From a virus: 64,000 nucleotides of DNA. The stretch is from IMG/VR virus record IMGVR_UViG_3300029651_000001, positions 1 through 64,000 of that record, one strand, 5' to 3'. The notes beneath the pieces are model-generated. The model searched no databases and was not told the origin of the DNA. It was given only the letters and a program-made list of their open reading frames with translations. The position numbers and the translations under genes were made by a program. Shown piece by piece: positions 1,436 to 46,687 of the stretch (the first letter of the stretch is position 1; every line of letters starts with the position of its first letter).

Positions 1436-1460
1436 CTCAATCTCAATCTCCAAAGGGTTA

Positions 1461-1479
1461 GGCCGGTGTGCTGCCGGCC
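1461..1479 (-). terminator. Intergenic stem-loop, conserved CAGCACA-loop class
   Basis: + strand reads GGCCGG TGTGCTG CCGGCC. In transcript sense it is followed directly by TAACCCTTTGGAGA. Confidence 0.6.
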
Positions 1480-1701
1480 TCACAGTAAATGACTAGGGAT
1501 GTCCTTAAATGCCTGGTGGTCCGCAGGTACGACGCCCACGGCATCCTCCGTATCCCTTACACCGGCCCGGTAGGCTGCTTTTATCAAGCGTTCTGCTACA
1601 TCGGCACGTACTTTGTTTTGCTTAACTCCACTGATATCCGCTAGCCGAGTGTCTTCCAGATTCAGCAGGATATTTTTCAGTCGATCGCTCATGCCTTTCA
1701 T
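1480..1701 (-). CDS. Hypothetical protein (73 aa)
   Basis: ATG 1701 overlaps the upstream stop (ATGA), with GGAG just upstream. Alternative ATG at 1692. The N-terminal extension to 1782 is dropped. Confidence 0.5.
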   Translation of the reverse strand: MKGMSDRLKNILLNLEDTRLADISGVKQNKVRADVAERLIKAAYRAGVRDTEDAVGVVPADHQAFKDIPSHLL

Positions 1702-1904
1702 GTCTCCACCATTGCCTCTACAAACCTGACGAACTCCTTCTCCCTCGCCTCGTCCACCGCATCCGCGGCCAGCCTGAGGCACTTGGCCAAGCCGTCCTCC
1801 CGTCGGTGTTGAAAGCGAGTGATCACCTGGCGGTTGATCCGGACTTCGTAGTCGTGAGGGCCGGTTTCCGCCGGCCGTTCGGTCACATTGACGATCGCGA
1901 TCAT
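1698..1904 (-). CDS. Hypothetical protein (68 aa)
   Basis: Begins MIAIVNVTERPAETGPHDYEV. ATG 1904 lies 2 nt after the stop of 1907..2104. Confidence 0.55.
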   Translation of the reverse strand: MIAIVNVTERPAETGPHDYEVRINRQVITRFQHRREDGLAKCLRLAADAVDEAREKEFVRFVEAMVET

Positions 1905-1906
1905 TC

Positions 1907-2104
1907 CTAGTATGCCTCCGCCAGCTCCTTCAACTCCTTTTCGACTTTCGGCCAACAGATGCTGCAGTAGTGCCGGTAACTGTGATCCGGATCCGTACCC
2001 CAACCGGCCAACTTCATTGTGATTTCCGGGGTGTCGCATTCGTCGACTTCAAGGGTGTTCCCACAGTCGAGGCCATCACATTTGACAACAGTTTGAATGG
2101 TCAT
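1907..2104 (-). CDS. Small Cys-rich protein (65 aa)
   Basis: Cys pairs KCDGLDCGN and HYCSICW. RBS is GGAGAAACC-ATG. Confidence 0.55.
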   Translation of the reverse strand: MTIQTVVKCDGLDCGNTLEVDECDTPEITMKLAGWGTDPDHSYRHYCSICWPKVEKELKELAEAY

Positions 2105-2116
2105 GGTTTCTCCAGG

Positions 2117-2371
2117 TTAACAATCACACGAGCAACCGCCGCCAGAGCTTCCAGAGTCACAGCCCCCCGAGCTGCCGTAAACCGGCGTGTGACTGGAGGA
2201 CGCCGAGGAGCTCGACGATCTCGAGCAGGCCCTCGCCGGCTTAACTGGCGGCATCGTCGGACAGTTCCTCGCCTTGCGCACCCCCCGATCCCACGGTCTC
2301 GGCGGCTGGACTTCCTCGGAAGCAGCAATTGATCGGCTCTTCTTGAATAGATTCTTCAGCCAATTGAGCAT
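2117..2371 (-). CDS. Possible overlapping small ORF (84 aa; Cys/Gly/Ser-rich C-terminus)
   Basis: Good RBS (GAGGTG N4 ATG) and a stop 12 nt before the next start. However, it overlaps the 3' end of 2241..2609 by 131 nt and is Ser/Arg/Pro-rich like an off-frame read. Confidence 0.25.
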   Translation of the reverse strand: MLNWLKNLFKKSRSIAASEEVQPPRPWDRGVRKARNCPTMPPVKPARACSRSSSSSASSSHTPVYGSSGGCDSGSSGGGCSCDC

Positions 2372-2609
2372 GTAACACCTCGTTTAACTTCTTCAGGAAT
2401 TCTTCATACGCTGCCTTGCAGCCGATTCGCCGCTTGATGTGCGGCGGGATCTTCGGCAGGTACCCGAAGGCCACATAACCTTCGTCGGCCCAGGTCCCAA
2501 GCACAGCGGTCCCGGTGTAACCCAGCAAAAGAAGCTTCTTGCCTTTCGGCGCGGGCTCTTCAAGAGGGTCGATCCACCAGACGATGGGCGCAGTCTTGGG
2601 CTCGATCAC
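2241..2609 (-). CDS. Hypothetical protein (122 aa)
   Basis: GTG 2609 overlaps the upstream stop (GTGA), with GAGGAG 6 nt upstream. The last ~35 aa are low-complexity. Confidence 0.55.
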   Translation of the reverse strand: MIEPKTAPIVWWIDPLEEPAPKGKKLLLLGYTGTAVLGTWADEGYVAFGYLPKIPPHIKRRIGCKAAYEEFLKKLNEVLHAQLAEESIQEEPINCCFRGSPAAETVGSGGAQGEELSDDAAS

Positions 2610-3004
2610 TCGGGACTCCTCAGAGGAGCACCTTCCTCAAGCATCTTTTCCAGTACCGCCAATTCATTCCAAGCCTTATGAGCCTGATGCAGCAGTTCGG
2701 AATCCTTGTCGTAAGGCCCTTCGATGACTTCCTTGATGGTGTGGCGCTCGCTGGCGTCCCCGTAACGGTTAATGGCATCTGGCACGTCCCGCCAACCACC
2801 CCACAAGTATTTCTCGGCCCCGTGCTGAGAGACAAACGCAACGGCTTCCAAGGCTCGCGGGAAGTACTGCAGGACGCCTCGCTTAATTGGTGGCTTGCCG
2901 GCGTCCAGCTTGGCTCCCGGGGAGTGAGGGGAGCGGCCTGTAGGATCCGTCTCCTGCAGAGTTGGTAGTTTGGGCACACTGGCCCCCCGTAAGTTTTCAG
3001 GCAT
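2606..3004 (-). CDS. DUF5664-like protein (dATP/dGTP diphosphohydrolase N-terminal-like fold, tentative)
   Basis: The pattern GAKLDAGKPP...ALEAVAFVSQHGAEKY...W...RYGDASERH resembles that phage family, from memory. Start trimmed to ATG 3004 after the leader motif at 3011-3024. Confidence 0.55.
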   Translation of the reverse strand: MPENLRGASVPKLPTLQETDPTGRSPHSPGAKLDAGKPPIKRGVLQYFPRALEAVAFVSQHGAEKYLWGGWRDVPDAINRYGDASERHTIKEVIEGPYDKDSELLHQAHKAWNELAVLEKMLEEGAPLRSPE

Positions 3005-6955: not shown

Positions 6956-7660
6956 TTATGCAGACATACGTAGAGCTTGTTCGGTAAACCCATACTTCGC
7001 AGCCAGTTGCGCCTTATCGGTGTGTCTCAGATGGTTGGCAGGCAAGACTTCAACCAAGCTTCCCTTCAGGACTTTCACAATTCCTTGATCTTCCAAAGCA
7101 TTAAGCGCATACGTCGTCATCTCCCTGGAACACCTTGCAAGCTTGGCTAATACCGCTCTCGGCGCAGCGATTCTTCTAGTTCTGTTACCTAACTCTTCAT
7201 TGCTTTTTAATAAGTCAAGCAGCGCCAAATATACTCGGTCTTCTACCTTTCTGAATTCCCGACTGGCTATAGCCTTACTCAGGTTTAGTACTGTAGACGA
7301 TACTTGGACCAATATTGCCTCTAATACTTCAGCCCTAACATCGGCCGACATTGCTATTAGGGATTTTCTGAGAGCTCCCTTCGATATGGTTGCGACGCAT
7401 GACTCTACCTCAGCGGTCACCAGATAATCAAACGGCTGGCTCCCGAAAACCGTTTCCACTCCTACTATGCTGCCGCACCCTGCCCTGTATAGCAGAGTGC
7501 TTCTGTTGTCATCTTCCTCTTCACTAAGCACCTCAACAGAGAGCCCTCCGTGAATTACATAATACAGTCCGTCTAACCTTTTTCTATCCGTTAGTGGTTC
7601 GCCTTTTCTTACTAGACGCGATTCCCCTATTTTCAAAAATACTGTATGCAATGAATGCAT
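6956..7660 (-). CDS. Crp/Fnr-family transcriptional regulator (cNMP-binding domain plus C-terminal HTH)
   Basis: N-terminal beta-roll pattern (LVRKGEPL...LYYVIHGGLSVEV...LLYRAGCGSIVGVE...AEVESCVATI). HTH RAVLAKLARCSREMTTYALNALEDQGIV. Visibly AT-richer than its neighbours and lacks the leader motif. Confidence 0.8.
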   Translation of the reverse strand: MHSLHTVFLKIGESRLVRKGEPLTDRKRLDGLYYVIHGGLSVEVLSEEEDDNRSTLLYRAGCGSIVGVETVFGSQPFDYLVTAEVESCVATISKGALRKSLIAMSADVRAEVLEAILVQVSSTVLNLSKAIASREFRKVEDRVYLALLDLLKSNEELGNRTRRIAAPRAVLAKLARCSREMTTYALNALEDQGIVKVLKGSLVEVLPANHLRHTDKAQLAAKYGFTEQALRMSA

Positions 7661-9427: not shown

Positions 9428-12400
9428 TTAAGCAACTTTCAAAAGTTCGAGGTACTTGTCGAAGTCGATCGAATCGAGTTCGAGGCTGACCTCCGGGTCG
9501 TTCGCAGCCAGTGCTATGGGCGAATTGCTCCCGTCGTGGTACCAATAAGTGAGGTCCTTCGTCTCCAGAACCTTCCGCACTGCCGCCACGATTTCATCCG
9601 GTGTCGGGCACCGGCCTACATCCTCCTCTTTCAGGATTTCGATTTGGTCTCCAAAGTTGGGACCCAGGGACGGCGCCGACGGCAGTGGCACACCTAGACC
9701 CTCGACCGGGATCGTCATGATCTCGTAGAGCTCGGTGATGAGAGGGACGGCGACGCTGTGATGGCACGAGACCACCACTTCGTCGTAGATCGTTGCGATC
9801 AGGGAAGCGTCGTACCGCTGCAGGATCTTTCTTACCCACAACTCCTTCAACGTGCGTTTCAGGATGTCTGCGGCCAGGCCTTGAATCTTATAGTTCACGG
9901 CTTGACGGTGCATCCGGCTGACCAGGTCGTCGTTACCGATCAACAGGTTGTTGTAGAAATGTCGCCGGCTGCCGAACAGCGTGGACACGTACCCTTTTGC
10001 CATGAGATCGCCGATCACCTCGCGCCGCCACTCCTCGACGCGCCAGTTCAACGCCTTTTTGGTTCGCAGGTACTCGTCCGCCTCGATGACCGGACACAAG
10101 AGTTGTCGTGCCAGTTTTTCCGCACCAATTCCGTAAATCGAACCAAAGTTGATGTTCTTGGCCTTGCTGCGCAGATCCTTGAACTCCTTCGAACGAGGGT
10201 GCTCCTTGTCCTCCATGGTGTCGCGGAATTCCTCATACGACAGTTTCGCAATCGCCGCCCCCACCGCCGTATGCAGCGACATGGAGTTGTCGCCATCCGG
10301 CCCGTAGACTTTCAGCAGCTCTGGATCCTGGGAAAGTCCCGTCAGCTCTCGAAGTTCCTGTGACGACCAGTCGCAAGAAACGACCAGGTCGTGACCTTTC
10401 TTTCTGTTCGGTAAGATGTTTCTCCTGAACTTGACCCCTTCGCCCTTCTTCGGCCACTGGAACGGGTTCGGATTCGACCCAGACGGCCGGCGGGTGTCCG
10501 TACCTGTGGAGTTGACGCTCGGGTGAATGTTGCCGTCTAGCGGGTGCACCCACAAAGGGTACTTGGCGTAGAACAAGCCTTCCCGAGTCAAACATTCCTT
10601 GACCGTCTTCAAGGCAAGCAGCGCCTCTCGGCGCCAATCGCCTTCCTTGGTGTCCTCGGCGATGGCCATGGCCACGGCATCCTTGTCCGTACCCGGCGCG
10701 CCCGGCAATCCCAAAGCCTTACGTGTGTCGGAGACTTTGAGATTCCGGAGGCGAATCGGCAGCGCCAGCATGCCGTAGAGGAGAGCCACGTTCTGCTTGG
10801 GGGAATTAAGGTTTAGCTCGGAACCCTCCAGCACCCAACGCTCTTCCTCCGGTAGATCTTCTCGCAAGATCTCCTCGGCGTACCAGAGCAGTTCCTGAAC
10901 CTCCAGGTCCTCCTTCTTCTTGCCGGCGGCGCGGCCCAACATCCGCAAGAACTTCTCGTCGCCAGTCTCCTGGTTGTCCAGGATGTACCCGGTGATTGCT
11001 TTCTTTGATGTGGAAGGGATTTCAGGCATACCCAGCACAGCTGCTACCTTGCTGAGGCAAGCACTCGTGAACAGCGCCTTGATAGGTTTTGGTAGGCGTT
11101 TCAGCGGCTGATATGTTGCCATCTCGTAGCAATCCGCCTTGAGCTGTACCAGCGCAGCTGCCAATTCATCCTCGGTTTTGCCGTCTTTGGCCGCCTTTGC
11201 TCTGACCTCCATTGATAGTTCGTCGAACAAGATCTGGGCACCTTTGCCGATTTGCTCAGGGCTGCGGTGCTCTTCCAAGAGCTTTCGCAGCTTGTCCATC
11301 GCCTCGTTCAGCGTCCGCCGATCATCCTCTTGCTGCCGAGCCATTTCTTCGAGGTCGACCGAGATGCCGTCAAGGTATGACTGCGACAACGGATATACCG
11401 CGACGAACTCGTTCTCCCGAACAAAGTCCCAGGTTCCTTCGCATTCCAAAATCAGCCTGGAAAGCTCATATAGATGAGCGGTAACAAAAGGATCGTCCGC
11501 GCCGTAGTCGAAGACATGAGTCGCCGGGTAGTCGCACATCCGTTTACCCTTCTCGACGACGTCCTCGTAGTGTTTCTGATCGTAATCGAACCAGCTCTTG
11601 GTCAGATCCTTGAGACCGTGCCAGTCGTTCTCGTCGACATGACTGGCCATTATCTTGGTGTCGTGCAGGTTCGGGATGTCGAATCCGAGCTCGTTGAGGA
11701 CAACCGTACGCTCGAAGTAGCAGTTGTGCGCTACGATCGGCTTTTCCTTTGCAGCTCTCAGCAGGCCGACCAACTCCTCCTTCGGCAGGTTGGGTGTGTC
11801 CCTATGGTCAAACGAAGCGTAGATCGTGTATTCCAGGTTGTTCCCGAACGTGAAGCCGGCGCCGGCAACCCGATGTGACAGCATGTCGACGTATTCGCTT
11901 TGCGCGGCCTTGGCTTTATTGAAGGCTTCGTGCTGGACGTAATCCGAGGACTCGATGTCGAAGGCGACATAGGCGGACTCGTCCATCGCCTTGAGGATGT
12001 CCTCCTTCATGTCGGAATAATTACTGGCGTCGACCAGAATCTTGACCGGAGTCAGGTGTTGTAGCTTGCTGATTAAGTGAGAGCATCCGGTGTCGAGCAG
12101 GAGTTTGCGCAACTTCTGCTCGTCCGGCAGCCTTTTATGCCACTTGATTCGCTGGAACTTGGTCCCGTAGAACGCGTCCACCAAGTTGGGGTTGATGTTC
12201 GCAAGGTGCCAGCTATTGATCCACTCGTTCCGCTGCTCCCAAAGTTTCTCGAGCAGCTTGTGTTCTCCAGGCTCGTGTTTCAAGGCGTCACGAATCAATG
12301 GGAAGTCGCCGGATGCGATATCCTCCTTGATCTTTCGGAGACCGTCTTCCCCGTAGGCTTCCAACAGTTCCGGCCACTTAGCCGGGCCGAAACCTTTTAC

Positions 12401-23185: not shown

Positions 23186-23346
23186 GGCAGTCTCCTCCAA
23201 AACACGGTCACGAATATACCGACCACCCCGACAGATTGAAGAAAAAGGACCTTCATGATTTGAATCAGATCCATGCCGCTGCGTTCCAGTAGCGTGCTGC
23301 TCACAAACAAGCAGACCACCCCAAGGATGAACAGGATTAACCTCAT
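23182..23346 (-). CDS. Small membrane protein (54 aa, below the ORF-track cutoff)
   Basis: Hand translation gives MRLILFILGVVCLFVSSTLLERSGMDLIQIMKVLFLQSVGVVGIFVTVFWRRLP. Coupled at both ends (TAATG upstream, ATGA downstream). Confidence 0.55.
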   Translation of the reverse strand: MRLILFILGVVCLFVSSTLLERSGMDLIQIMKVLFLQSVGVVGIFVTVFWRRLP

Positions 23347-24122
23347 TACAGCGACTCCTTCATCTTCTCGGCCAGAACGAACAATGCTTTGTTCAGCCGG
23401 CGATCCTCATCGATCGATGTGATCGGACGAGAGCGAGTGCGCCGGCCCTTCTCGGAAAAGGTACGGACACCTCCCTTGATCAGATTCTCCTGGACCCGGT
23501 TCATTGTGGTCCACAAGTCGTTGCCGTAATCATCCCGGCGGCGGGGCCGTAGGAGCCCCTCGATCGTGGCGGGGTTCGGCTTGTTGTCTGCGTCCTTCAA
23601 CACCCAGGCGGCCTCCGCAAAGGCTCGCTGTTGCTGGGGTCGTAGCTCAATAGCCCGCATCTCTTGGGAGAGTTCCGCGACTTTCGGGAGGTCCTCGACC
23701 ACGGTGAACACGCCCTCGATCACGTCATCCATGGTATGGCCAGTGTGTCGCACCCGGTGTGAGGCAACCATCGAATCCGGAACACACATCTGGTTCGAGC
23801 AGATGCACCGGAACAGGCCGCCCTCGAAGATCCAGGCGGAAGCGCCGTCGTGGGAATTGATGAGGGAAATCTCGCCGATAATGTCGCCCTCCTCGAGCCG
23901 GTGATCGTGGCTACGCAGGGTGACGCGGTGCTTCATGTACCCGCGGCGATTTGCGTCTCGGGCTTTCGTTTGATACGCCCGGACCGGGTAGAACCCTTGC
24001 TTCTCCAATGCCTGCAGCACTTGCAAGGTGGAGAACTGAACGTATTTCTCGGAAAGGTTCGGGGCGTGGGTCGTGGTGGCGACGGACGGGGCTTTGCTTA
24101 CGACTTGGTCTAAGGTCAACAT
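23346..24122 (-). CDS. DUF932/DUF945-family phage-plasmid protein
   Basis: Family-typical strings LINSHDGASAW and HRVRHTGH. ATG 24122 follows the leader motif at 24131. Confidence 0.65.
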   Translation of the reverse strand: MLTLDQVVSKAPSVATTTHAPNLSEKYVQFSTLQVLQALEKQGFYPVRAYQTKARDANRRGYMKHRVTLRSHDHRLEEGDIIGEISLINSHDGASAWIFEGGLFRCICSNQMCVPDSMVASHRVRHTGHTMDDVIEGVFTVVEDLPKVAELSQEMRAIELRPQQQRAFAEAAWVLKDADNKPNPATIEGLLRPRRRDDYGNDLWTTMNRVQENLIKGGVRTFSEKGRRTRSRPITSIDEDRRLNKALFVLAEKMKESL

Positions 24123-24151
24123 AGGTTTTGTCTCCAAAGGGTAAATACAAG

Positions 24152-42866: not shown

Positions 42867-43169
42867 TCATGAGTGAAAGCTCCACTCGCAGGGCTTAAGC
42901 TCATCTTCGCCCGGCAGGCTGCCGCGGTAGACGGCGCCCAAGGTGAATCGGTGGACGGATTGGGTGCTGGTGTAACCGGCGACGAACTCCATCTGCCGTT
43001 TGTTGAAGTAAATGGAGACCCTGTCGTAGGCGTCCGGGCAGAAAGTGGCAAGCCGGCCGATCGCCTGCTGCATCTTGAGTATGCCGTCGGCGCCGTACAG
43101 CCTGTAGAGTTCGGCCTCAGTGTTCTGGAGGTCGGTGGGGTCGACGTGGAATTCAATCGTTCTCGACAT
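42867..43169 (-). CDS. Hypothetical protein (100 aa)
   Basis: ATG 43169 (MSRTIEFH) follows the leader motif at 43175. Confidence 0.6.
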   Translation of the reverse strand: MSRTIEFHVDPTDLQNTEAELYRLYGADGILKMQQAIGRLATFCPDAYDRVSIYFNKRQMEFVAGYTSTQSVHRFTLGAVYRGSLPGEDELKPCEWSFHS

Positions 43170-43186
43170 GGTTTGCTCCAAAGGGT

Positions 43187-43983: not shown

Positions 43984-44551
43984 CCAGCACCTCCGTGCAA
44001 TGCATTGCAAGGACTTCATAGGCTACCTGGCTTAGCTCATGCTCCATGCTCTCTTTGCTTTCGAAAATACCAGTCGTGAACACATATCCCATCTTGTCCC
44101 GATACAAGGCGTAGTGAACCTTCCTGATCTTCGGTTTCATGTAAAGAAAAGGTTCACCGAGACAGCCGTAGCCTTGCGCAGAGAGTGCGTGAACTCCCCC
44201 GGTATTGAGGTTAATCGTCACTACGCGGAATGCTGGACGCGCTTCCGTAACATAGGCAACGAATTTATGCTCGCTGCCGTCAGTGTCCACGGCCAGCTGG
44301 CCGGCCTTGAAAGCCTCCAAATTAAAAGGAATTCTGTTCACGTTTTCAGTCTCCAAAGGGTTGCGCAGGATTTTTAATTCCTCGGTAGGTCCGTATAACG
44401 CCATGGCCGGCTCGCCACCATTACCGTAATCCGTATACACCTTGAGCAGTCCATCTTGGGTTCTCACCACCCGGACGACCCGCTCGTTGTGTTTGGGGCC
44501 TCGATGACCAATCCAATCACCAGGCATGAGGTCCTTAGCCTCAATCTTCAT
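43973..44551 (-). CDS. Hypothetical protein (192 aa)
   Basis: ATG 44551 follows the leader motif at 44559. An in-frame internal leader motif plus GTG lies at 44350-44362. Confidence 0.6.
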   Translation of the reverse strand: MKIEAKDLMPGDWIGHRGPKHNERVVRVVRTQDGLLKVYTDYGNGGEPAMALYGPTEELKILRNPLETENVNRIPFNLEAFKAGQLAVDTDGSEHKFVAYVTEARPAFRVVTINLNTGGVHALSAQGYGCLGEPFLYMKPKIRKVHYALYRDKMGYVFTTGIFESKESMEHELSQVAYEVLAMHCTEVLDEK

Positions 44552-45182
44552 TTTTAGCCCTCCAAAGGGTAATCAGGCCTGCAAGGATGAGGGTTGTAGT
44601 GGACGGCTCCGGCAGTTCACGGGTCTCTCTGTCCGGCGCCGCCTCCCTCACCTGTAGCCGGGTGATGTTCCCGCACACCCGAGGTACGGCGATGATGTAC
44701 TCGCCCAGCCAGTACACCTCGGCTCGCTCGTAATGCAAGTCCTTGAAATTGGTTCGGGTTCCGTAACACATGCTGTTGCCGAACGCCATCGAATAGGTGG
44801 GAACATACCAATGGTGGGTGTCTCTGACGCCTGCATTGCTGAACACCGCCTCGTCATCGGAATCCTTACGCTTGATCCGGTCGGTCAAAACCTTGGCGGA
44901 GTCCGTGTCTACGCCGAGGGTCCGCAAGGCGGAGTAGATATCCCCCGTGAATGGGTGGCTGCCAGGATTGCCCCATTTGCAGCCGTAGCGGAGTTGAAGC
45001 GGCCTGTATTCCGGCTCCCTGATCGGTTCTACCAAATCGGCTGCGTTGCCCAGATCCGTAACACCGGTGGAGTCCGGAGTTGAGGGGGCGATTGTGACGG
45101 TCGTGATCGCCGCCGACAGCGGCAATGAAAAACACAAGCTCCCGACGATGAACCCTCGCCAGAATCTCGACGGTCTTTTCAT
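44541..45182 (-). CDS. Secreted protein with a PEP-CTERM-like sorting signal (213 aa)
   Basis: N-terminal signal-like FIVGSLCFSLPLSAA. The C-terminus LPEPSTTTLILAGLITLWRAKNED combines PEP, a hydrophobic helix and basic residues. Leader motif at 45189. Confidence 0.65.
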   Translation of the reverse strand: MKRPSRFWRGFIVGSLCFSLPLSAAITTVTIAPSTPDSTGVTDLGNAADLVEPIREPEYRPLQLRYGCKWGNPGSHPFTGDIYSALRTLGVDTDSAKVLTDRIKRKDSDDEAVFSNAGVRDTHHWYVPTYSMAFGNSMCYGTRTNFKDLHYERAEVYWLGEYIIAVPRVCGNITRLQVREAAPDRETRELPEPSTTTLILAGLITLWRAKNED

Positions 45183-45199
45183 AGGAGGTCTCCAAAGGG

Positions 45200-45216
45200 T
45201 AAGTACATGTCCTTAA
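45200..45216 (-). promoter_or_regulatory. Oriented TTAAGGAC-NN-GTACTTA site fused to the leader motif
   Basis: + strand reads TAAGTACATGTCCTTAA. It overlaps the inverted repeat ATGTCCTT (45207-45214) / AAGGACAT (45223-45230). Confidence 0.55.
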
Positions 45217-45227
45217 GGATTGAAGGA

Positions 45228-45256
45228 CATCGGCCGTGGTGAGAACACGGCCGATG
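45228..45256 (-). terminator. 11-bp stem-loop, candidate 3' boundary of the tmRNA locus
   Basis: + strand reads CATCGGCCGTG GTGAGAA CACGGCCGATG. In transcript sense it is followed by UCCUUCAAUCCUU, a weak U-tract. Confidence 0.45.
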
Positions 45257-45261
45257 GCTTG

Positions 45262-45498
45262 CCGGATAAGCTCCGGCGGGCTCTTGTTGCTGGACTTGTA
45301 CGGCTTACAGCTCCCGTTTGGTTGTACCTTGATTTCCCCCTAATGCTTGCGGGCTGCAGGGTTTGTGCATCTTGGGTGCGCGAATTCCCATGTCCGGACG
45401 CAGTCCCAAGTAGCAATCAAAGCATTACCATCCAACCAATAATGGCTAGGTCGCAGCTCCCCGGATCGTGTCTGTTACCGGATAAGCTCCGGCGGGCT
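45262..45498. repeat. 21-bp direct repeat CCGGATAAGCTCCGGCGGGCT (45262-45282 and 45478-45498)
   Basis: Exact 21-mer copies 216 bp apart, downstream of the tag frame. Each contains the 5-bp hairpin CCGGA/TCCGG. Similarity extends about 8 nt further on one side. Confidence 0.85.
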
Positions 45499-45563
45499 GT
45501 TGTCGCCAACGACTGCGATTCGGTTGCCCGGCTTCTGTTCTCAAGCGCCGGGCAGGCTCGGCT

Positions 45564-45605
45564 TTAGGCGGCTGCCTTCAGCGGGGCATACGTATCATCG
45601 TTTGC
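45564..45605 (-). other. tmRNA tag reading frame: ANDDTYAPLKAAA followed by a stop
   Basis: GCA AAC GAT GAT ACG TAT GCC CCG CTG AAG GCA GCC GCC TAA. The GCA resume codon, AND start and AAA end are typical of proteolysis tags. Confidence 0.75.
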
Positions 45606-45882
45606 CTTTGTGGTTTTGCGCGGTTAACGCCCGTCGCCTTTCGTGCTGCCATCTCTGCTTTGCTGCCCCGTCGAAACCTGGCTGGCCCATCAGAAGAAGG
45701 CTGTTAGAGCGTGCAGTAGGAGTCGAACCTTCTTTTGGTGGACCAGGCCGGAATTGAACCGGCGTCCGAGACAACTCCACTTCGATGGAGTTACAGCAAT
45801 TCGGCGCCCAATCTATTCGGCAGACTCCCACTGGACTAGGAGCGCATACTGCCGGCATCCCTACAGGGCGGCCAGGTCTGCC

Positions 45883-45911
45883 TTATTGTGAAATCGGTAA
45901 TATCCCTACAA
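45883..45911 (-). promoter_or_regulatory. Candidate sigma70-type promoter for the tmRNA locus
   Basis: Transcript sense reads TTGTAG, a 17-nt spacer, then CAATAA, immediately upstream of GGCAGACC (45882). Match to consensus is weak to moderate. Confidence 0.3.
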
Positions 45912-46007
45912 AGTCCGTGTCTTCTCGTTCTCCAATTAGGGCGACCCCGTCCGGGCGTAATACATCCAGCTAGGATTAAAAATACCGGCGAGGTCGCGGA
46001 ACACATA

Positions 46008-46033
46008 ATAAAAAAGCCGGCGTTGAGCCGGCT
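46008..46033 (-). terminator. Rho-independent terminator downstream of 46058..46297
   Basis: Transcript sense reads AGCCGGC UCAAC GCCGGCU followed by UUUUUUAUUAU. Confidence 0.8.
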
Positions 46034-46057
46034 ATGGGGTCAGTTCACAAGGTTTGG

Positions 46058-46297
46058 CTAGCCGTGTGAGCTACACCACCGTTTCGATACGAAATATCCA
46101 ATCTGGTGGCTGACTACCCGGTAAACACCTTGCCCAAACCAGCCCTGACTGGGGACACCGTGCTTCTTCCGGCCGTAGATGTCGGCCGCCGGCACTCCGA
46201 AGACCCACACGGCCATGGGCGTCAGGTCGCCTCCGCAAGCGGGGGCCAGGGCTAGGGCGATCGAGAGGTAAAGGGTTAAGGTGATTGTTGATGTCAT
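46058..46297 (-). CDS. Small secreted or lipoprotein-like protein (79 aa)
   Basis: ATG 46297 (MTSTITLTLYLSIALALAPAC) follows the leader motif at 46302. Confidence 0.55.
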   Translation of the reverse strand: MTSTITLTLYLSIALALAPACGGDLTPMAVWVFGVPAADIYGRKKHGVPSQGWFGQGVYRVVSHQIGYFVSKRWCSSHG

Positions 46298-46353
46298 ATG
46301 ATCTCCAAAGGGTTGAGGTTGTACATCCTTGTCGGCCGTCCTTGGCCGCATCC

Positions 46354-46371
46354 TTAAGTACTTGTCCTTAA
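46354..46371 (-). promoter_or_regulatory. Oriented TTAAGGAC-NN-GTACTTAA site
   Basis: + strand reads TTAAGTAC TT GTCCTTAA. The nearby hairpin CGGCC GTCCTT GGCCG (46333-46348) carries GTCCTT in its loop. Confidence 0.5.
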
Positions 46372-46381
46372 ACTTTCCAGG

Positions 46382-46687
46382 TCAAGGCTGGAACCCGCTT
46401 AATGCGTTCTTCTGACCCTTCAGGAACTGCTGCTCCAACAAGGATCTGAGTTCCTGCTCGGTCAGGATGAAGATGTCTCCGTCCAGTTCGATGAGGCTAC
46501 CCGCCATTTTCACGGTTATCGGCTCGTCGTCGGCAAGGATCAGGTGAGCCAGCTCGTGAGCCAGCTCGTCTTTCAGATAACGGATCGCGTCATCCATGGT
46601 GCCGTATCGCGGGTCTTTCATGTAGGTTTGCTTTGCTCGGAAGCGCCTCTTCGGCAACTCGTTGGCGTCGAATATCTTGTCAAACAT
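46382..46687 (-). CDS. Hypothetical protein with an HExxH string (101 aa)
   Basis: ATG 46687 (MFDKIFD) follows the leader motif at 46695. Contains DELAHELAHLIL. Too short to call a metalloprotease. Confidence 0.55.
   Translation of the reverse strand: MFDKIFDANELPKRRFRAKQTYMKDPRYGTMDDAIRYLKDELAHELAHLILADDEPITVKMAGSLIELDGDIFILTEQELRSLLEQQFLKGQKNALSGFQP

Follow-up and report, generated by a model that had tools for sequence, protein, structure and literature searches.

Identification of the permuted tmRNA gene

A circularly permuted transfer-messenger RNA (tmRNA) gene, ssrA, was identified on the minus strand of a 64,000-nucleotide stretch of viral DNA, positions 1 to 64,000 of IMG/VR record IMGVR_UViG_3300029651_000001 (the whole stretch is called the window below). 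The gene extends from about 45853 to 45499 and is complete and apparently intact. Judged by sequence comparison and structural modeling, it is likely a bona fide, probably functional, beta-type permuted tmRNA, an accessory gene in the genome (at least 93 kb) of an uncultured phage of virulent type. The permuted arrangement is supported by two independent detectors, an unconstrained co-fold of the two pieces and covariation across a family of related RNAs. An acceptor piece comes first, followed by a 47-nt hairpin spacer and a coding piece, placing the 3′ half of the tRNA-like domain with its CCA upstream of the 5′ acceptor strand and the tag. Since the 3′ acceptor half precedes the 5′ half, the mature RNA must consist of two base-paired pieces.

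ARAGORN called a permuted tmRNA at 45473-45828 with the tag ANDDTYAPLKAAA. The Rfam covariance models RF01850 (beta_tmRNA; 119 bits, E 1e-35) and RF04321 (tmRNA_permuted; 124.3 bits) both gave full-length matches, above their gathering scores of 84 and 47 bits, respectively. A sequence-only reading of the window had listed a T-arm, a CCA, a spacer, the strand GGGCCAG and a tag frame as parts of a two-piece tmRNA. Each of these was found where it had been placed, and ARAGORN independently returned the same tag. The same reading had put the gene in a gene-free stretch of 850 bp, which in fact measures 875 bp between called genes (45183-46057).

The acceptor piece (45736..45810, minus strand, as are all parts of the gene) forms the 3′ half of the tRNA-like domain and was delimited by ARAGORN, Rfam, co-folding and covariation. 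It contains the P2 strands (45798-45767), the T-arm GCCGG/UUCAAUU/CCGGC with loop UUCAAUU (45763-45747), the 3′ acceptor strand CUGGUCC (45746-45740), the discriminator A (45739) and the encoded CCA (45738-45736). The coding piece (45499..45688) was delimited by the same four approaches together with tag comparison. It opens with the 5′ acceptor strand GGGCCAG (45688-45682), 3′ of which lie GGUUUCGAC (45678-45670), the P2 strands (45670-45644) and the pseudoknot PK1 (45643-45618), located between P2 and the resume codon GCA (45605-45603). The tag frame GCA...UAA (45605-45564) encodes ANDDTYAPLKAAA and then a stop, and is followed by a post-tag hairpin (45554-45525) and a 3′ tail (45520-45499). 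The tRNA-like domain is complete, having a 7-bp acceptor stem, G3·U70, the discriminator A, the 3′ CCA, and a T-arm with its T-loop.

ARAGORN also listed a standard one-piece tmRNA at 45736-46145, with the tag GSTPAFLLCVPRPRRYF, that would reuse the 3′ end of the permuted gene, with GGGCUGG at 46145 able to pair with CUGGUCC. This pairing requires three G·U wobbles in the acceptor stem, compared with one in the permuted reading. The 5′ part of the one-piece call lies within a called protein gene, its tag crosses the terminator of that gene and lacks an Ala-Ala end, and Rfam scores the shared 3′ end best with the beta permuted model. The call was rejected, and the probability that it marks the true gene is negligible. 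The permuted reading pairs GGGCCAG with the strand upstream of the tag, and a rival 3′ acceptor strand, sought as YUGGYCC, was not found in the 1.5 kb downstream of the tag. Neither such a strand nor a lack of significant covariance-model hits, both named in the sequence-only reading as refuting it, was observed.

Structure and covariation

Co-folding of the two pieces without constraints gave the structure expected of a two-piece tmRNA, with the T-arm, a 7-bp intermolecular acceptor stem and a long P2 helix, amounting to 34 intermolecular pairs. P2 is formed between 45798-45767 and 45644-45670. An additional helix joins UUGGCG at the 3′ end of the coding piece (45509-45504) to CGCCGA at the 5′ end of the acceptor piece (45806-45801). 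The acceptor stem has a G·U at position 3 (G 45686 with U 45742), the alanine identity pair that the sequence-only reading had pointed out.

For the covariation test, the window RNA was aligned with 70 non-redundant permuted tmRNAs of the beta type from viral contigs (71 sequences), and the window's own base pairs were scored across the alignment against 500 shuffles and slid controls. The window pairs were formed in 79.3% of cells, compared with 62.2% in shuffles. The covariation score was 0.425, compared with 0.147 in shuffles (0/500 reached 0.425) and 0.065-0.105 in the slid controls. Within the alignment, compensatory changes were seen in the acceptor stem (98.8% paired), the T-arm (99.7%), P2a (95.1%) and distal P2 (82.5%). 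At the third acceptor position, 71/71 sequences have the U·G. The second stem of PK1 is a strong helix of 6 pairs (45637-45631 with 45623-45618), also with compensatory changes in the family. A local hairpin of the acceptor piece, CUCCA/UGGAG, was considered and dropped, having no support in the alignment. The T-loop UUCAAUU is a minority variant present in 8 viral contigs; a metagenome scan for it returned 19 loci, none of them close to the window gene.

The intervening segment and the tag frame

The intervening segment (45689..45735, 47 nt), characterized by folding and family comparison, would be excised on the predicted maturation. It forms a closed hairpin, in which 45734-45726 pair with 45702-45694; the closing stem, earlier read as 7 bp, has 9 bp in the minimum-energy fold. 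A closed spacer hairpin is common to 85/87 family members, and the spacer usually ends in UGAU right before G1. The window spacer has 47 nt, whereas spacers of the viral family set have a median of 31. A T-loop-like motif, GGUUCGACUCC (45729-45719, minus strand), lies in the loop of the window spacer, 31 nt past the true T-loop. This motif is found in 1/87 family spacers and is private to this phage. In the 64 kb, GGTTCNANTCC, the exact T-loop motif, has only two matches, one in the true T-arm and one in the intervening segment; the ∼0.5 exact matches expected come from our own arithmetic, and the shuffle control (15 found, 18 expected) covers the one-mismatch search only. The motif in the spacer is probably the remnant of a past rearrangement or recombination.

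The tag frame has 13 codons, opening on GCA (45605), stopping at UAA (45564) and ending in Ala-Ala. Its resume codon falls in the column aligned with the resume codons of the family (71 tags). The N-terminal half of the tag, ANDDTY, is canonical and matches the ANDxxY pattern of the family.

Phage context and strain variation

On one side of the window lie genes for the terminase large subunit, portal, head protease and major head protein, and on the other those for a DNA polymerase, primase, helicase, SbcCD, the small subunit of ribonucleotide reductase (RNR), DNA ligase and a polymerase exonuclease. The terminase lies ∼9 kb and the replication genes ∼27 kb away from the tmRNA gene, which has small open reading frames (ORFs) on both sides and a uniform G+C content of 52-61%. 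Over the ∼20.6 kb compared, the window is 100% identical to the ENA contig ERZ27257335:k141_10347 (93,085 bp). At least 24 contigs, up to 93 kb long, contain the same locus, the index of the assembly collection lists a flanking protein in 26 of its blocks, and the ∼875-bp gene-free gap is kept in every locus that reaches upstream of the 213-aa gene next to it. Because phage genes flank the tmRNA on both sides and the locus recurs in these contigs, the gene is internal to a virulent-type phage genome, away from any prophage-host junction. The phage context claimed earlier for this tmRNA is confirmed by these observations.

Among cultured phages it has no relative; the closest terminase, that of Vibrio phage SHOU24, is 33.6% identical, and at the DNA level 44.0-47.5 kb of the window matched none of 50,697 phage records. 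Terminase-related loci (L121-L143) either end before the tmRNA position or differ in gene order, and the tmRNA is in none of them. A 2.8-kb contig (L154) with a 59%-identical homologue of the 213-aa protein has another gene order and no tmRNA, and the 124-aa protein encoded upstream matched nothing but itself. In L121, the closest terminase relative (89% amino-acid identity), homologues of the window's 1.4-2.6 kb region lie directly upstream of the terminase, as observed on comparing L121 5465-7255 with window 1440-2613 (the end of the RNR small-subunit gene and its neighbours) and 54496. The 52-kb early block of the phage would so lie elsewhere or be absent in L121, or the gene order would differ.

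Across strains of the phage, among them L288 and L289, which have diverged a little further, 0 substitutions were found in the two mature pieces. The single substitution within the gene is at 45713, in the spacer loop, and the flanking protein genes differ by ∼0.8%. The invariant mature pieces fit purifying selection, without being significant on their own (∼2 changes expected). Over most of the compared span the strains share at least 99.2% identity and are too similar to inform a covariation analysis.

Transcription signals

A terminator scan placed an intrinsic terminator of the upstream gene at 46005..46033 (minus strand), consisting of a 7-bp G+C-rich hairpin and a T-run, in which a strain indel lies at 46015. 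The strength of this terminator suggests that the tmRNA would be a separate transcription unit, shielded from transcription of the genes upstream. The 5′ leader (45811..45853, minus strand), defined by Rfam and folding, comprises a hairpin GGCAG...CUGCC (∼45853-45819) and a stretch matched by the 5′ part of the Rfam beta_tmRNA model, which is promoter-like and unstructured. A strain single-nucleotide polymorphism (SNP) at 45835 falls in the loop of the leader hairpin.

Downstream of the gene, a perfect 11-bp hairpin, CAUCGGCCGUG/CACGGCCGAUG, lies without a U-tract at 45228..45256 (minus strand), just before the ribosome-binding site of the 213-aa gene (45182-44541). A strain SNP at 45247 is in its stem. 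This hairpin may be a 3′-end mark or a stabiliser.

Functional state of the gene

Several observations weigh against a bona fide, functional tmRNA gene. The middle segment of P2, in the window's register, is just 45.7% paired across the family, and the first stem of PK1 is weak in the window copy, with 2-3 pairs compared with 4-5 in relatives. The 119-bit score is at the low end of the 111-183 bits of the viral relatives (the 14 nearest among the matches listed). The end of the tag, ...PLKAAA, is unusual: an AAA end occurs in 2/71 family tags, and the window tag is without the usual hydrophobic residue third from last, where L, M, V or I stands in 59/71. The lack of strain substitutions is not significant, with ∼2 expected. 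A sigma-70 consensus promoter was not found in 45000-46400, and searches based on the terminase, the 213-aa protein and the 124-aa protein found no diverged relative of this phage carrying the tmRNA.

These features might be read as those of a recently captured and decaying ssrA copy, a non-working passenger from a host or another phage. The weak first stem of PK1, the atypical tag end, a model score below that of most relatives, the stray T-loop-like remnant in the spacer and the lack of a recognised promoter would all suit such a copy. The parts that matter for function are nevertheless in place, with G3·U70, the discriminator A, CCA, the T-loop, GGUUUCGAC, the resume codon and an in-frame stop all intact. 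The second stem of PK1 is a strong 6-bp helix, and in strains of many samples the mature pieces are without substitution or indel while the flanks vary. A decaying copy is therefore considered unlikely.

A decoy or inhibitor has also been considered, in which the tRNA-like domain would bind host SmpB and outcompete the host tmRNA with little productive tagging. A tRNA-like-domain-only tmRNA has been described in mycobacteriophage DS6A, with a proposed decoy or inhibitor role, and a similar molecule inhibits tmRNA (PMC4131195, PMC11915505). The atypical tag end would suit a decoy, as would the result for SmpB, for which a tblastn search of the window with one E. coli SmpB sequence, a weak negative, gave nothing below E = 5. 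A pure decoy would have no need for the full coding piece that has been kept here, comprising PK1, the resume codon, the 13-codon frame and the stop, and the N-terminal half of the tag is canonical. These points make a decoy distinctly improbable, and a functional, tagging tmRNA is the preferred reading.

Proposed mechanism and the tag end

The steps proposed for this RNA follow the biology of two-piece tmRNAs, reportedly established by Keiler, Shapiro and Williams in 2000 and by Sharkady and Williams in 2004. A single precursor RNA would be transcribed, RNase P would cleave it at G1 (45688), and 3′ trimming would bare the CCA at 45736. The two RNAs would remain base-paired through the 7-bp acceptor stem and the long P2 helix. 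Host alanyl-tRNA synthetase would charge the RNA, and host SmpB and EF-Tu would bring it to stalled ribosomes, where translation would restart on GCA and add (A)ANDDTYAPLKAAA. As SmpB was not found in the window with the E. coli query, the RNA would rely on host SmpB; it would also rely on host alanyl-tRNA synthetase, EF-Tu and RNase P. The likely benefit for the phage would be the freeing of ribosomes during the degradation of host and phage mRNAs in infection.

In E. coli, the C-terminal L-A-A of the ssrA tag is read by ClpX, and the N-terminal part of the tag by SspB. By analogy, the ...KAAA end in place of ...LAA could weaken ClpXP targeting, and the altered end may change the handling of tagged proteins. 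If so, ribosomes would be rescued while the tagged proteins would be degraded unlike host-tagged ones, amounting to a rewired trans-translation. The sequence-only reading had suggested that host trans-translation is supplemented or rewired by the phage, which may plausibly be so.

A conserved intergenic element at the tmRNA 3′ end

A 32-nt direct repeat is present in two copies on the minus strand, 45475-45506 and 45259-45290, which are 91% identical. The core of copy A, AGCCCGCCGGAGCTTATCCGG (45498-45478), abuts the 3′ end of the tmRNA, and the core of copy B is at 45282-45262. The repeat is an instance of a strictly conserved, 18-29-nt phage intergenic element with the core CGCCGGAGCYTATCCGGC. 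The sequence CGCCGGAGCYTATCCGGY was found in 114 IMG/VR contigs (L174-L287) of 36-67% G+C, with 1-3 copies per fetched locus. In the dominant form (110 unique contexts), a stop codon is followed by CCCCACGGCC-CGCCGGAGCCTATCCGGC-A, ∼29 nt in all, while a minor CTTAT form is found in A+T-rich contigs and in this window. The element is co-directional with the genes; the stop codon of the upstream gene comes immediately before it, and the next ATG is usually ∼12-45 nt downstream, as judged by eye from the listed contexts.

The repeat bears on a further explanation, by which the gene would be the host's own ssrA, or an attachment-site fragment of it, and the window a prophage integrated there. tmRNA genes are frequent integration sites (PMC4383910, PMC11915505), and the 32-nt direct repeat overlaps the tmRNA 3′ end. 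The gene is complete rather than a fragment, however, and it lies deep among phage genes (∼9 kb to the terminase, ∼27 kb to the replication genes) in DNA of uniform G+C, in an arrangement found identically in contigs of up to 93 kb. No integrase was seen among the 20 largest window ORFs scanned, and two specific patterns for a cellular ssrA match gave 0 hits in 185,579 species genomes. The repeat itself, read as an integration scar, is better seen as the widespread element, its core recurring in 114 unrelated viral contigs without association with tRNA or tmRNA genes elsewhere. Integration at ssrA is largely refuted and highly improbable, and the gene is best regarded as part of the phage.

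No Rfam family exists for the element, annotated phage and plasmid records gave chance matches only, and its sequence is absent from the literature text searched; by these sources, the element is apparently previously undescribed. Its 5-bp stem, GCCGG/CCGGC, is invariant, and since the stem never varies, recognition looks sequence-specific rather than structural. Phage sigma-70-family factors are frequent in element-bearing loci, forming clusters that span 13 and 11 loci. The recurrence of these genes suggests that the element may be a promoter read by a phage sigma factor; a sigma-factor homologue was not found in the window. Its role may best be guessed as that of a gene-boundary signal resembling a promoter or operator, or of a hairpin for termination or processing.

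The two element copies enclose a structured non-coding unit of ∼190 nt (45283..45474, minus strand) with no called gene. The 296-nt stretch made up of this unit, both element copies and the terminal hairpin has a fold z of -3.16 and beats 200/200 shuffles. The unit matched no Rfam family, and 2.47 Mb of fetched loci contained no homologue; it may be a separate small RNA. In another element-bearing locus, an A+T-rich viral contig (L182), near-threshold matches to hammerhead ribozymes were observed between element copies, at 11088-11138 and 11735-11787 (type I, 32.1 bits with a gathering score of 34; type III, 25.7 with 48.5).

Taken jointly, and without excluding one another, an altered-degron tmRNA and a new phage gene-boundary, promoter or operator signal at the tmRNA 3′ boundary form a reading that is possible and rather unlikely.

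Other features of the locus

Directly downstream of the tmRNA unit, the 213-aa ORF (44541-45182, minus strand) begins with a signal-peptide-like N-terminus, and its C-terminus is similar to a PEP-CTERM sorting signal (...LPEPSTTTLILAGLITLWRAKNED). Pfam gave no hit for this ORF, and only two clusters of homologues were found among 5.8 billion proteins. A leader motif, (A)ACCCTTTGGAGA(C), far longer than a Shine-Dalgarno sequence, stands 4-8 nt ahead of the start codon in 19 window genes (for example at 45199, 46312, 39975, 39413, 9427 and 56387). Two more sites were found in L154, the contig with the 59%-identical relative. At 1-260 of the same contig, a TnpB-like zinc-ribbon C-terminus is followed by a hairpin, just upstream of a homologue of window 42867-43181. 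Two further genes of the window (6956-7660 and 23346-24137, minus strand) encode a Crp-like protein (cNMP-binding domain and HTH_Crp_2) and a DUF932 protein.

Significance

The locus shows ribosome-rescue machinery in a virus, in its rarer two-piece form and from a lineage without cultured relatives. The catalogue of phage tmRNAs gains one beta-type, G+C-rich member with an unusual tag end. A single tmRNA gene alone leaves existing knowledge unchanged. Should expression and tagging prove true, the RNA could help to distinguish whether the tmRNAs of phages serve simply to free ribosomes or to alter the fate of the tagged proteins. The conserved intergenic element at the tmRNA 3′ end is the more open question of the locus. 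If the reading of it given above is true, it could serve phages as a gene-boundary, promoter or operator signal of a new kind; in this phage it brackets a structured RNA of ∼190 nt.

Comparison with known tmRNAs

Phage tmRNAs have been surveyed in several studies. Buchholz et al. found a two-piece ssrA in phage Melnitz, which infects Methylophilales, and detected tmRNAs in 402 phage genomes out of 18,146; the unique forms numbered 133, and ARAGORN called 53 of them two-piece (Buchholz et al. 2022, PMC9004378). The 2025 tmRNA database, for which RF04321 was built, lists 79 bacteriophage sequences (PMC11915505). In IMG/VR, a generic permuted-junction pattern was found in at least 120 contigs. 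Among the matches listed, the 14 nearest to the window are all beta-type, with the 111-183 bits given above, and over the core the closest of them shares ∼70% identity with the window gene. In one of the contigs (L067), a beta-type tmRNA lies between the terminase and a DnaB helicase. As phage two-piece tmRNAs are both published and abundant in IMG/VR, they are a documented class of phage gene, to which the window gene adds one copy.

The sequence-only reading had taken the two-piece form as a hint at the host lineage. The subtype is indeed beta, and it may be a weak hint of betaproteobacterial origin. The hint is weak because Melnitz shows that the tmRNA type of a phage can differ from that of its host (PMC9004378); the two specific patterns scanned in cellular genomes gave no match, and the nearest cultured phage is too distant to indicate a host.

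The one-piece tmRNAs of phages, such as those of the Bxz1 group of mycobacteriophages and Bacillus phage G (Hudson et al. 2014, PMC4131195) and of huge phages, for which tmRNA and SmpB have been reported (Al-Shayeb et al. 2020, PMC7162821), are likewise phage-encoded ribosome-rescue RNAs, presumed to sustain translation during infection, as here. They differ in being standard and non-permuted, and SmpB, not found in the window with the query used, is encoded by some of the huge phages.

The two-piece tmRNAs of other phages (Melnitz, pelagimyophages and those in IMG/VR) share with the window gene a complete permuted ssrA in a lytic-type genome with no integrase nearby. The Melnitz gene is alpha-type and linked to a glutamine riboswitch, whereas no riboswitch was found at the window locus, and the phage of the window belongs to a lineage without cultured relatives.

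The closest known system is the beta-type two-piece tmRNA (RF01850). The window gene shares with it the permuted order, the encoded CCA, a short hairpin spacer of the kind that in most cases closes with UGAU ahead of G1, GGUUUCGAC, a P2 formed between the pieces, PK1 and the resume region GCAAACGA, as reflected in the full-length 119-bit match. It differs in its acceptor stem GGGCCAG/CUGGUCC, in its T-loop UUCAAUU, where most relatives have UUCGAnU, in its 47-nt spacer with the T-loop-like motif, in its 13-residue tag ending in KAAA, and in being borne by a phage.

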